Part shown: in pieces, positions 29,800 through 32,994 of the stretch
How positions within the stretch are numbered: position 1 is the first letter of the stretch
Layout: each line of letters starts with the position of its first letter
Made by a program: the position numbers and the translations under genes
Notes under the pieces: generated by a model
What the model saw: the letters and a program-made list of their open reading frames with translations, nothing else
What the model was told of the DNA's origin: nothing
Databases searched by the model: none
Source of the DNA: Folioceros fuciformis
Lineage: Eukaryota
DNA: 37,036 nt
Assembly: GCA_049999805.1 (NCBI GenBank)
Contig: JBNGIO010005625.1
Location: 1 to 37,036 of the forward strand
Reading direction: 5' to 3'

Positions 29800-30724
29800 T
29801 CAGCTATCTTTCAACAGAGTGGAGAGCATAAGTTGTTGTACGAATTTGGAGCGTAGCTGTGATTGCTGCCATCTATGTTGACGCTCCTCAGTTGTCAAGG
29901 GAGTCTCCGCACTGCAGTCAACAGCCTCTTGTAAGGACTAAATAAGCTTACAAAATTGAAAACCGTAGAATCGAATGCCAAACCTGACGAGACTTACATG
30001 AAGTGCTGGACAATCACATACCTCGGTTTTTGCTGTTGCGCTGGAACTGCAGGGTTTCTCGCTGTTGTCTCTTCTACTGGAGCACTGGTTTTGAGGGTGC
30101 CCTCCGCATCAGGAATAGGAAGATTGTACACAAGGGATAATAGAAGAGGATCTGCTGTAGCAGAGATATGTGAACCAGCAAGTGACGATCCTCCCCCTAA
30201 GAGGGCATGCAAATGTGCGTCTCTAAGTTCCTTGCCAAGCAGAGAAAGGGTAGAGCTTGATGGTGCTCCAGCTTTCTTAAACCTCCTCCTTCGATGCATG
30301 TGCTAACACATAGTCAAGGATATGGACAATACGCGCTTTACAAAACCAAGAAAGGAAAACGAAAAACACTGTGAGGTGGGAACCGACGAAAAGAGGATAT
30401 CTTGAGCAGGTGGCCATGCTGAGCTGTCATGTGCCCAATCATATCCTTTCCAACCTTGGCATCACAGACGGGGCACATCTGCATGTGCTATAATGAGTTA
30501 GCCTCAAAAACAGAACTTCATCCAAAAACGTATGAAGGCAAAACTACCTACCTGATGACCCACCGCAGCCTTAGCTTCAAAGCAATGCTCGTCCTCCAGG
30601 TGAGCACAAAGGGTGGTGATGTCGAAATCATCATAACAGTAAGGGCATGAAAACTCTGGTCGCATCTCCTCGTCACCTTCTAGATCTTCGAGGCCGATAT
30701 GCCTGCTGTCGGACATACGCCTGT
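29800..30724 (-). CDS. DI19: DEHYDRATION-INDUCED 19 (Di19) zinc-finger exons; no typical first exon found
   Basis: Exons 30724-30564 (FSCPYC...LCAHLEDEH), 30478-30401 (MCPVC...HMTAQH), 30299-30022 (RRRRFKK, LSLLGKELRDAHL, ADPLLLSLV) and 29911-29800 (RSKFVQQLMLSTLL). Confidence 0.92.
30300..30400 (-). other. U12-type (minor spliceosome) AT-AC intron in Di19
   Basis: 5' site ATATCCTC at 30400, branch point TCCTTGAC at 30320-30313, 3' end GCAC; removal joins HLLK to MHRRRRF in frame. Confidence 0.9.
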
Positions 30725-31001
30725 CTGCAAGTTGCCACCGCCGTAGTCACACACTTGATAAAGAGCTTGTCGTTACATAGGCCATCAATCAAAGGACACT
30801 CCACTTCATGGATAAGCTACATGACGGTTCACTCAAAAGATTGAAAGCTTCCAGAGATAAGAGGAGCACACGTACTCCATGATGGGTGTGGAGAAAGTAT
30901 GAATGACTTAACTGCAAAGCCCGCAAGAAAATGTATGTCAGCAAGCCGCATAGATCCTACATCGCACGGCTAGCAGTACAAGATTTGGATCTGATACAAA
31001 C

Positions 31002-32994
31002 CAGCATGTTGTATTGAGTCCACACCAGAAAAATCCCCCGATTTTGCCCCTCCATATGTCCTCCTGGAGTTCAATGCGTCCAAGTCAGTACATTGCAAAC
31101 ACCCACTCGTACGACACAGCAGAATTGCAAATCGACGATCGAACGAAAATAACCCACGATTCGGCTTTCCGTGAACAAGGAGGTTGGTCAGGTGCCACCA
31201 CTTCGGCAAATGAAACTGAGCAGGAATCATCCAGCGTCCAGACTCTGGCGATTCCATCTGAGCATGCAGTGACTAGATCCCCATTTGGCAGATACTTGAC
31301 ATCCCATACGCATCCAGGATGTTCAATGCTTTGATGGCAAACTCCATCTGCTTGCACAACAAATTCCTCCAAACATCAGAACGGCATGGAAAAGTGCATT
31401 AGACAACTCCCGAGACAGCATTCACTTGCTGCATCACGCAATGTCCAAGCGGCGGCACAGAGCAAGGAAGGAAGACCAGCGTTCAGAGACAGGTGACAAG
31501 GCAAACCTCTCCAGATCTTCGCGGAGCTGTCTTCACTTCCAGATGCGATTTCTCCTGTGGAAAGGGCAGCAACAGCATAGACCATGGCAGAGTGACCAGC
31601 CATTTCTCGTAACACCTCTCCAGTGGTTGCCCACAATCGCACAGAACTGTTCCAGGAAAATTCCAGTAAGTATACTTGGGCAAGCAACCAGGCCAACACT
31701 GCTCCAACGATTTCTTGGCAAAAGGTCATGTTACCAGTCATGAGACGCCGACACGATCCCAACGTTTGGATCAAATGCAAGGCCCCGTACAATATCTGCA
31801 AACTACAAAAGATTGAGTAAAACGGGTCACACCCCGTGGGCAAAGCGCTTCTATTAAGAGAACTTCATTGCACATGGCCCGAATACAAGTCAAGTTCTGT
31901 GTAACAGGGACAAGATTGAGAAAGTACCTGTATGCCCCAATAATGTTCGAACACAGGTTGACCCGCACCAGACCTTGATAGTAGTATCCGATGACCCTGT
32001 CACAAACATGGAAGATACAGCCATCACGACAAGCCACCCGGATCGCTTCAACACGTACAACCAAGTGCCAACACAGATTTTTCAACCTCCTCCTCACCTG
32101 TCACAACCTCTCCAGACGGCAAAGCAAGCACAGCTTGAACAGGCTCTGAGTGCCCCTCCAAAACCTCCACGGCTACCCCCTTTCTCCACCTAAGCACGTT
32201 ACTGTTGCAAGCACACCACAAGTCACGCCAGAGCACCAGACAACCATAAACTACACCGCCATCTTTCCTACAGCACATGTCTCACCTATCCACAGAGGAT
32301 GACAACACATCACCCTTAGAGTCAATGGCAACGCTGGTGACCTGCTGCTCGTGGCCACACAATTCCCGAGACACGGAGGCCGTTTCCAGATCCCAAACCA
32401 GTACCCTTGTATCCATGCCCCCGGAGACCAGCCCACCGCTCGGGAGATCCTCATTGGGCGGCAACCACGCCACCGTGCCCACAAAACTCGTGTGCCCAGC
32501 TAGCCTTTTCTTCAGCACGTACCCTCCTTTCTCAGCCGACCAATAGCACACGGATTTATCCCGCGACGCCGACGCTATCCCAGAATCTCCACACACGCAC
32601 AGCCCTCTCACCTACACGGCACCAAACATGAAACCACCCAGCTCCCTAAGTCCACACTCAATTCGCGCACCCACATAAAGGCGTTGGGCTGCGCAGCTCT
32701 AGGGTTTAGCTCTGCATGCACCAAAGGTGTGCATAGCAAGGGGACAAGACCAGAAGAGAGCCAGCTCCATAGCAGGTCAATTCTGCGCCACCCACATTCT
32801 CCCGGCACCCGACAGCGGCATGGGCAGCCGCCGGGGTGCTAATTCCACCAAGTGCCGTGGACAGCAAGGCATCAGTCGGAACAAGCAACAGAGAAGAGAG
32901 GATTGCACCAGATGGACATGGTGGGGACGCATACATGGTCTTGGTGGCCGAGCAGCTGGCAGCGGAGCTTGTACTGAGGCGAATTCAGCTCCAT
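31002..32994 (-). CDS. PLAA/DOA1/Ufd3-like WD40 propeller exons; PFU and PUL domains absent
   Basis: MELNSPQYKLRCQLLGHQDH / VRGLCVC...SASRDKSV, VSGGMDTRVLVW, GSSDTTIKVW, SASHDCSVRLW, SGSEDSSAKIW, SIEHPGCVWDVKYLPNGDLVTACSDGIARVW, then a linker exon RTYGGAKSGDFSGVDSIQHA (31063-31002). Confidence 0.88.

Follow-up and report, generated by a model that had tools for sequence, protein, structure and literature searches.

The 37,036-nucleotide (nt) stretch of Folioceros fuciformis DNA analysed here (contig JBNGIO010005625.1 of assembly GCA_049999805.1; hereafter, the window) carries on its minus strand, at 32994-29803, a gene that joins, in one reading frame, the WD40 propeller of a PLAA/Doa1-type protein and a plant Di19 zinc-finger protein. 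Its 13 coding exons make up a coding sequence of 1686 nt (561 codons, no internal stops), in which a micro-exon connects the 5′-terminal half of one gene to almost the whole of another, with an AT-AC intron kept in the Di19 part. We are confident that the fused mRNA and its reading frame are real and conserved. Taking structure and function together, the explanation that we favour overall, with more modest confidence, is a single real, spliced, protein-coding gene whose product, a PLAA/Doa1 propeller fused to Di19, would work as an adaptor of an E4 ubiquitin ligase. This clean, RNA-supported new gene bears on the question of what Di19 proteins do.

Four public runs were placed on positions 28000-35000 of the window, of which runs X3 and X4 had no contigs there and are uninformative, while X1 and X2 stem from two different studies. 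All eight X1 contigs are at least 99 % identical to the window, so that X1 is taken to be the same organism; the three X2 contigs show 90-95 % identity, and X2 is therefore taken to be a relative. We treat the contigs of both runs as assembled cDNA, because introns are missing from them and the skipped parts run GT..AG on the strand of the gene. A single 2132-nt X2 contig extends from 33073 to 29698 with all exons of both halves, and its length is that of the fused message plus its untranslated regions (UTRs). The X1 message consists of three overlapping contigs, covering (i) exons 1-9, (ii) the exon 9-10 joint, and (iii) exon 10 to the 3′ UTR; their depths (64, 68.3, and 87.2) were not used, since depth cannot rank the parts of a gene. 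The minus strand of 29000-34000 was read in all three frames and Pfam was run on individual exons; with the contig joints, this gave the following gene model.

32995-33073, minus strand: 5′ UTR, minimum extent; X2 contig record 7 covers 32933-33073, and the ATG lies at 32994-32992.
32935-32994, minus strand: exon 1, ATG plus 20 codons, PLAA N-terminus; joint 32935>32611 in X1 and X2, tblastn alignment to PLAA residues 1-21.
32286-32611, minus strand: exon 2, WD40 blades; Pfam WD40 48 bits, identity of 65 % to Calypogeia PLAA and 70 % to the related protein P0001 (see below).
32098-32201, minus strand: exon 3, WD40; joints 32286>32201 and 32098>31996 in X1 and X2, splice sites.
31928-31996, minus strand: exon 4, WD40; contig joints, splice sites.
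31735-31795, minus strand: exon 5, WD40; contig joints, splice sites.
31507-31646, minus strand: exon 6, WD40; contig joints, splice sites.
31158-31347, minus strand: exon 7, final WD40 blade, then the beginning of the post-propeller linker; Pfam WD40 28 bits, contig joints.
31002-31063, minus strand: exon 8, 62-nt PLAA linker exon with a phase-1 donor; PLAA alignment, joint 31002>30911 in X1 and X2.
30876-30911, minus strand: exon 9, 36-nt micro-exon of 12 codons, bridging the PLAA and Di19 parts; joints 31002>30911 (X1, X2) and 30876>30724 (X1), both GT..AG.
30552-30724, minus strand: exon 10, Di19 start and first zinc finger, C-x2-C-x11-H-x4-H; Pfam zf-Di19 44.8 bits.
30401-30478, minus strand: exon 11, second zinc finger, C-x2-C-x10-H-x4-H; Pfam zf-Di19 33 bits, joint 30552>30478.
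30300-30400, minus strand: U12-type AT-AC intron in the Di19 part; 5′ end atatcctc, branch-site-like tccttgac at 30320-30313, 3′ end ac.
30022-30299, minus strand: exon 12, basic stretch and Di19_C; Pfam Di19_C 52.6 bits.
29803-29911, minus strand: exon 13, end of Di19_C with a candidate C-terminal 'pin' motif like that of KCMF1, followed by the stop TGA (29805-29803); Pfam Di19_C 27.7 bits.
29417-29802, minus strand: 3′ UTR; X1 contig record 2 is unbroken from 29417 to 29911.

A sequence-only reading of the same DNA had described eight open PLAA-like exons on this strand, the last of them a linker exon joined directly to a Di19 exon. All eight were found by three-frame translation and splice sites, and the contig joints match their borders throughout the WD40 part. 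The linker exon ends with a phase-1 donor (final G at 31002, intron gtttgt from 31001), the Di19 exon starts at 30724 in phase 1 after ttgcag, 277 nt downstream of the linker exon, and the junction is free of any N gap, as N runs occur solely at 2460-2559, 23485-23584, and 27463-27562. What did not hold is the direct joint: spliced contigs do link the two halves, but they run through the micro-exon (acceptor ctttgcag, donor gtacgt, phase 1 on both sides) that the earlier reading had missed, with intron-less joints at 31002>30911 and 30876>30724. A direct 31002>30724 splice would also stay open (549 codons, 0 stops), and no such joint was present among the 15 of 22 joints listed. At only 36 nt, the junction exon would be easily overlooked in an annotation made without RNA data.

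Of the 12 introns, 11 are canonical GT-AG, and the twelfth is the AT-AC intron that separates the second zinc finger from the basic stretch; its tccttgac motif lies 14 nt ahead of the 3′ end, and it is spliced out in both X1 and X2, with 2 nt of slack in the position of the joint. U12 introns are found in some Arabidopsis Di19 genes, which is why the AT-AC intron of the fusion gene may be ancient and conserved. Chance resemblance to the domains is no issue, because WD40, zf-Di19, and Di19_C were found by Pfam in single exons and 12 introns are cleanly removed in the contigs.

The relative sampled by X2 differs from the window at both ends of exon 10. Its donor lies after 30564, 12 nt upstream of the donor used by the window organism (after 30552); both donors are in frame, and the difference amounts to four residues between the two zinc fingers. 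At the start of the exon, 29 letters stand in place of the window's first 20 nt, a difference of +9 nt, so that the frame is kept. The sole indel listed between X2 and the window lies at 29772, inside the 3′ UTR.

A third, more distant species contributes P0001, a 401-amino-acid (aa) 'complete' Trinity open reading frame (ORF) in EukProt, which was the top match of the exon 2 search (70 % identity) and is 69 % identical to the window protein. Pfam assigns it WD40 families and zf-Di19, and its layout follows the order propeller, PLAA linker, micro-exon-like peptide, Di19 start, and first zinc finger. The junction, with the same micro-exon, is thus present in three taxa, namely the window organism, the X2 relative, and the species of P0001. 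A WD40 plus zf-Di19 protein in a related transcriptome, which the sequence-only reading had proposed to look for, exists in P0001. P0001 was the only row with PF05605 among the 120 matches listed, for which Pfam entries are incomplete in many long bacterial rows.

The N-terminal part of the product comprises a complete PLAA/Doa1-type seven-blade WD40 propeller and a short PLAA linker, and ends exactly where the PFU domain would begin. Approximately 340 N-terminal residues are colinear with plant PLAA, with 61-62 % identity to liverwort and moss PLAA, and the best named matches of exon 2 among longer proteins are full-length PLAAs with both PFU and PUL (Calypogeia, 65 %; Marchantia, 64 %; Sphagnum, 64 %). 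In the liverwort PLAA P0004, Pfam places PFU from residue 339, immediately behind the part that aligns with the linker exon, and PUL at residues 497-762. When P0004 (768 aa) and a second liverwort PLAA, P0006 (779 aa), were compared with the whole 37-kb window by tblastn (E<1), only residues 1 to ~320 had matches, with none for PFU or PUL, and Pfam found neither domain in the exons scanned; the earlier statement that the locus has no room for them is upheld. Compared with PLAA/Doa1/Ufd3, the WD40-PFU-PUL cofactor of Cdc48/p97, the fusion thus shares the propeller and the pre-PFU linker, whereas the absence of PFU and PUL deprives it of the second site for ubiquitin and of the domain that binds Cdc48.

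The propeller alignment is free of indels apart from a 3-residue deletion common to the window and P0001. The N-terminal parts of 18 canonical PLAAs have 88 invariant columns, of which 79 are retained in the window and 81 in P0001; these 18 are a chosen subset of the PLAA-like matches, which excludes other angiosperm rows and every bacterial WD40 protein. Six of the window's nine changes at invariant positions fall in the linker, and two changes in the propeller are common to P0001. A tree of 20 rows places the window and P0001 propellers in a clade of their own (100/100) on a long stem (0.31), inside the land-plant PLAAs (86/97), with no resolution of its placement relative to liverworts, mosses, and seed plants. 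This separate clade, together with the common deletion and the two shared changes at invariant positions, sets the fusion propellers apart from PLAA itself.

The structural model is that of the sister protein P0001 rather than of the window's own spliced protein. Built by AlphaFold2 from a 31-row alignment, it has a predicted local distance difference test score (pLDDT) of >95 over residues 1-295, with 28 strands, and low confidence from residue 342 onward. In a fold search, its top match in the PDB was the WD40 domain of yeast Doa1 (3odt; template modelling score of 0.90 on the target, E 4e-24), whereas a sequence search of the PDB with P0001 returned generic WD40 proteins, with no Doa1 among the 60 matches listed. 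The Doa1 WD40 domain is reported to bind ubiquitin with a dissociation constant of about 40 uM, and PUL to bind Cdc48 (PMC4828692). On this basis, the propeller of the window is predicted to bind ubiquitin, for which the 79 of 88 PLAA-invariant positions serve as a proxy only.

The Di19 part contains both zinc fingers, which form the Di19 zinc-binding (DZB) module, the basic stretch, Di19_C, and the C-terminal helix motif; it lacks the first ~25 residues of stand-alone Di19. The families concerned are zf-Di19 (PF05605) and Di19_C (PF14571), with the zinc-ligand spacing taken from the translation; the 27.7-bit score of exon 13 alone lies just below the 29-bit whole-protein cut-off for Di19_C. 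Consistent with the earlier claim that no Di19 first exon is recognisable, residues 1-27 of the stand-alone Di19 P0122 had no tblastn match in the window. The exon 10 search among longer proteins gave 12 hits among 21 candidates, comprising P0001 (74 %) and 11 stand-alone Di19s (194-239 aa; lycophytes, ferns, and seed plants); the identity of exon 10, which encodes the first finger, to the stand-alone Di19s of lycophytes and ferns is 63-67 %. Like the plant Di19 (DEHYDRATION-INDUCED 19) proteins, the fusion has a complete zf-Di19 and Di19_C and shares the C-terminal motif, whereas their conserved start of ~25 residues is replaced by ~350 residues of propeller, linker, and micro-exon. Pfam found no ZZ domain in the exons scanned, and neither a ubiquitin-interacting motif (UIM) nor a RING domain in the exons after the fingers; the one RING_UBOX line, which overlaps with the first finger, is weak (E 0.085) and falls short of the cut-off.

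Differences between X2 and the window were used to gauge constraint, with the counts concerning the Di19 half, as the 40 differences listed (of 102) do not include those in the WD40 exons. Over codons 383-561, the 32 listed differences comprise 21 synonymous and 11 non-synonymous changes, against ~128 synonymous and ~418 non-synonymous sites, and all seven listed differences in the last exon are synonymous. With the invariant PLAA positions largely retained in the propeller part, both halves show signs of purifying selection. Junction-spanning contigs in two runs, P0001, the open frame, and these signs of constraint together bear out the central proposal of the sequence-only reading, an in-frame PLAA/Doa1-Di19 chimeric gene lacking PFU and PUL.

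As for its origin, a partial PLAA copy (promoter and exons 1-8) probably ended up in front of a Di19 gene, after which the phase-1 donor of the linker exon would have been spliced to new phase-1 acceptors; the fusion probably predates the divergence of the three sampled species. Exon shuffling and the loss of CDC48 coupling, as put forward earlier, are reasonable readings of the missing PFU and PUL. The micro-exon itself loosely resembles, by an 'SW', the former 5′ region of Di19 as well as the first PFU exon, which is no evidence for an origin in either.

The proposed function draws on KCMF1, an adaptor that is tightly bound to the E4 ligase UBR4, which extends K48 chains on already ubiquitinated proteins; according to a 2024 preprint (bioRxiv 10.1101/2024.12.18.629163), the N-terminal ZZ-DZB module of KCMF1 is the substrate receptor, and the C-terminal helix of KCMF1 is inserted into the UBR4 scaffold as a pin. 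The same preprint proposes that DI19 is the plant KCMF1, sharing the pin while lacking ZZ, and that it binds BIG, the plant UBR4, in the same manner. The premise of the sequence-only reading, that Di19 proteins are stand-alone transcription factors only, is dated by this proposal, which also changes the most likely function of the fusion. In the PDB, the stand-alone Di19 P0122 matches a DI19 chain of known structure (9qt9) and, less strongly, the zinc domain of KCMF1 (E 8e-5 to 3e-4).

The fusion resembles KCMF1, with part roles as given in the preprint, in the order of its parts, namely a receptor module at the N-terminus, then a zinc-binding domain of the Di19 type, and finally a C-terminal helix, in the fusion a putative pin. 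It differs from KCMF1 in its N-terminus, which is a propeller, predicted to bind ubiquitin, instead of a ZZ N-degron reader. From this putative receptor-DZB-pin order, with the propeller as the receptor, we infer an adaptor that would bring ubiquitinated proteins to BIG/UBR4. In such a mechanism, (i) the Di19 half would act like DI19/KCMF1, its C-terminal helix being a 'pin' in the giant E4 ligase BIG/UBR4; (ii) the propeller, at the place of the metazoan KCMF1 ZZ receptor, would bind ubiquitin on already-ubiquitinated proteins; and (iii) these proteins would be handed to the E4, which would extend their chains without the involvement of Cdc48, since the fusion has no PFU or PUL. The E4-adaptor mechanism in its specifics is tentative, at less than even confidence. 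The evolutionary version, in which a bryophyte-like lineage would have rebuilt a KCMF1-type BIG/UBR4 adaptor with the PLAA propeller in place of the ZZ degron reader and with ubiquitin as the signal read, is rather doubtful.

A conserved fusion of Di19 with the propeller of a Cdc48 cofactor is the type of gene-fusion evidence that ties two proteins to one pathway, and suggests that Di19 proteins take part in ubiquitin-dependent protein quality control. Should the KCMF1-type rebuild be true, the gene would be a 'Rosetta stone', providing independent genetic evidence that Di19 proteins are ubiquitin-system adaptors, instead of or besides being transcription factors.

Several points weigh against the E4-adaptor reading or against the evidence for the fusion. 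Di19 has long been regarded as a drought-related, DNA-binding zinc-finger transcription factor. The only PDB matches of the 35-aa last exon are three KCMF1 chains (residues 302-330, 29 residues), and this match is weak (E 3.2-4.1). The binding of DI19 to BIG comes from the AlphaFold3 model and proteomics of a single preprint (bioRxiv 10.1101/2024.12.18.629163). On the transcript side, the four runs are labelled only 'RNA? (a guess)', so that their status as cDNA is by inference; the contigs are assemblies, and one contig across two genes is no proof of a single molecule; and the X1 contigs break at the boundary between the micro-exon and exon 10. An ATG in frame within exon 10 (30716-30714) could serve as an internal start for a Di19-only product. 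P0001 ends after the first zinc finger, probably due to a retained intron, and hence shows the junction and not the whole fusion. The constraint counts, as noted, concern the Di19 half.

Among the alternatives, the one that survives best accepts the fusion and regards its Di19 half as a classical nuclear transcription factor, for which the propeller would be a ubiquitin-dependent or other docking surface on chromatin; in a variant, the protein might compete with PLAA for ubiquitinated proteins, independently of Cdc48. The same structural evidence serves this view as serves the E4 adaptor. Moreover, plant papers describe stress-related regulatory roles of Di19 proteins and name IAA14, CIPK11, and FKF1 as their interaction partners, and yeast Doa1 is reported in both nucleus and cytoplasm (PMC4828692). 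However, nothing in the sequence favours DNA binding over E4 binding, and the most strongly conserved part is the pin-like C-terminal motif, whose seven synonymous differences out of seven fit a fixed protein partner. Further, the yeast WD40 domain alone is reported to have pulled down no substrate (PMC4828692). We consider the transcription-factor view unlikely.

A second alternative takes the fusion as a two-part reader of ubiquitin and ADP-ribose marks, convergent with the Di19-UIM of the animal proteins RNF114/RNF166, in which the fingers would bind ADP-ribose and the propeller would replace the UIM. The tandem Di19-UIM of RNF114/RNF166 is reported to read a mono-ADP-ribose-ubiquitin ester (PMC12583694), and the Di19 zinc finger of RNF166 with its C-terminus to bind poly-ADP-ribose (PMC10937711). 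In the fusion, too, a Di19-type zinc module is tethered to a predicted ubiquitin-binding element in one polypeptide. The geometry differs, however, as the propeller stands on the N-terminal side, ~70 residues away, whereas the UIM of the RNF proteins sits directly C-terminal of the zinc module; nor does the fusion contain a UIM, a RING, or any other writer domain. This view appears quite improbable.

The possibility that a truncated PLAA copy and a Di19 gene merely adjoin, are joined only by read-through, and work as a WD40-only protein and a Di19-only protein from the ATG at 30716 bears on the structure of the gene itself. Besides this in-frame ATG near the start of exon 10, it could draw on intron 8, retention of which would end the frame 12 codons past the linker exon; on the X1 message, which is in three contigs and not one; and on P0001, which is 'isoform 3' of its Trinity gene, so that several isoforms exist. 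Against these stand the WD40 part, which has no stop before its donor, the lack of a Di19 first exon in the window, the single X2 contig that covers everything, and the in-frame junction with its micro-exon, which is kept in three taxa even across the +9-nt indel of the relative. Read-through of two working genes is accordingly a very improbable account. An artefact of genome misassembly or chimeric transcript assembly, to which the three 100-N gaps of the scaffold and the assembled nature of all RNA-side evidence might be held to point, can be practically dismissed, as the nearest gap is more than 2.2 kb away from the gene, splicing uses canonical sites, the reading frame is preserved, and the junction recurs in the genome, in two intron-less contig sets from two studies, and in a Trinity ORF at 69 % identity.

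Returning to the PLAA-Di19 fusion as a single gene, we looked for further examples. Exon 10 had 382 matches (E≤1e-3), and none of 10 Pfam-scanned representatives, drawn from the 150 listed, contained WD40; they comprised all 6 of at least 329 aa and 4 shorter ones with an internal match, P0001 being absent from that list, and were DUF4283 plus Di19, Di19 plus PPR, or N-extended Di19 proteins. Two of these have odd architectures, P0336 and P0320 (DUF4283 plus zf-Di19, 421 aa; Di19 plus PPR repeats, 681 aa), which may be gene-model fusions or further chimeras. A search of the ESM Atlas with the junction part of P0001 gave ordinary Di19 clusters only, with scores of 0.76-0.77, below lead level.

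Full-text literature searches found no paper joining Di19 and PLAA; in the 11 papers on Di19 and WD40, titles and the beginnings of abstracts report no fusion, and Di19 is absent from the 10 listed of 46 papers that combine at least two of Di19, PFU, Doa1, and PLAA names. DI19 and UBR4 occurred together in two papers, which are versions of one and the same preprint. In agreement with the suggestion that the architecture was undescribed, P0001 is the sole fused relative from the protein searches, and apart from this ORF neither those nor the literature searches returned the architecture; both domains are well known, and domain-shuffled genes are common.

The neighbouring genes in the window include PSMD12-like, nucleoside hydrolase, TIP aquaporin, ribosomal protein S4e, F-box, two LURP-one-related, and DUF26 genes. 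The best named relatives of the TIP aquaporin are from liverworts (62-64 %), followed by mosses (57 %), and it also matches a Logan protein (91 %) and a Trinity ORF (71 %). These matches indicate a land plant of bryophyte grade whose close relatives are not represented by name in the protein collection. Each of the three N runs is exactly 100 letters long and represents a scaffold gap; one interrupts an ABC-transporter-like gene region, and one adjoins the LURP-one genes, a tandem pair (PF04525) at 25487-26083 and 26917-27381, both on the minus strand and ~1 kb apart.

Directly downstream of the fusion gene, a DUF26/stress-antifungal gene (28939-29382, minus strand; PF01657, 48.8 bits, C-x8-C-x2-C motif) starts ~70 nt past the end of the 3′ UTR contig, on the same strand. 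On the upstream side, positions 34310-36586 (minus strand) hold a 758-codon open frame with no Pfam match, which is acidic-rich, has internally similar stretches, and is probably transcribed, since a 3665-nt X1 contig covers it from 34337 onward. Between the end of the upstream open frame (~33536) and the 5′ UTR of the fusion gene (to at least 33073) lies a 324-nt X1 contig (33194-33517, minus strand), which is probably the 3′ UTR of the neighbour and would leave an intergenic spacer of ~100 nt.

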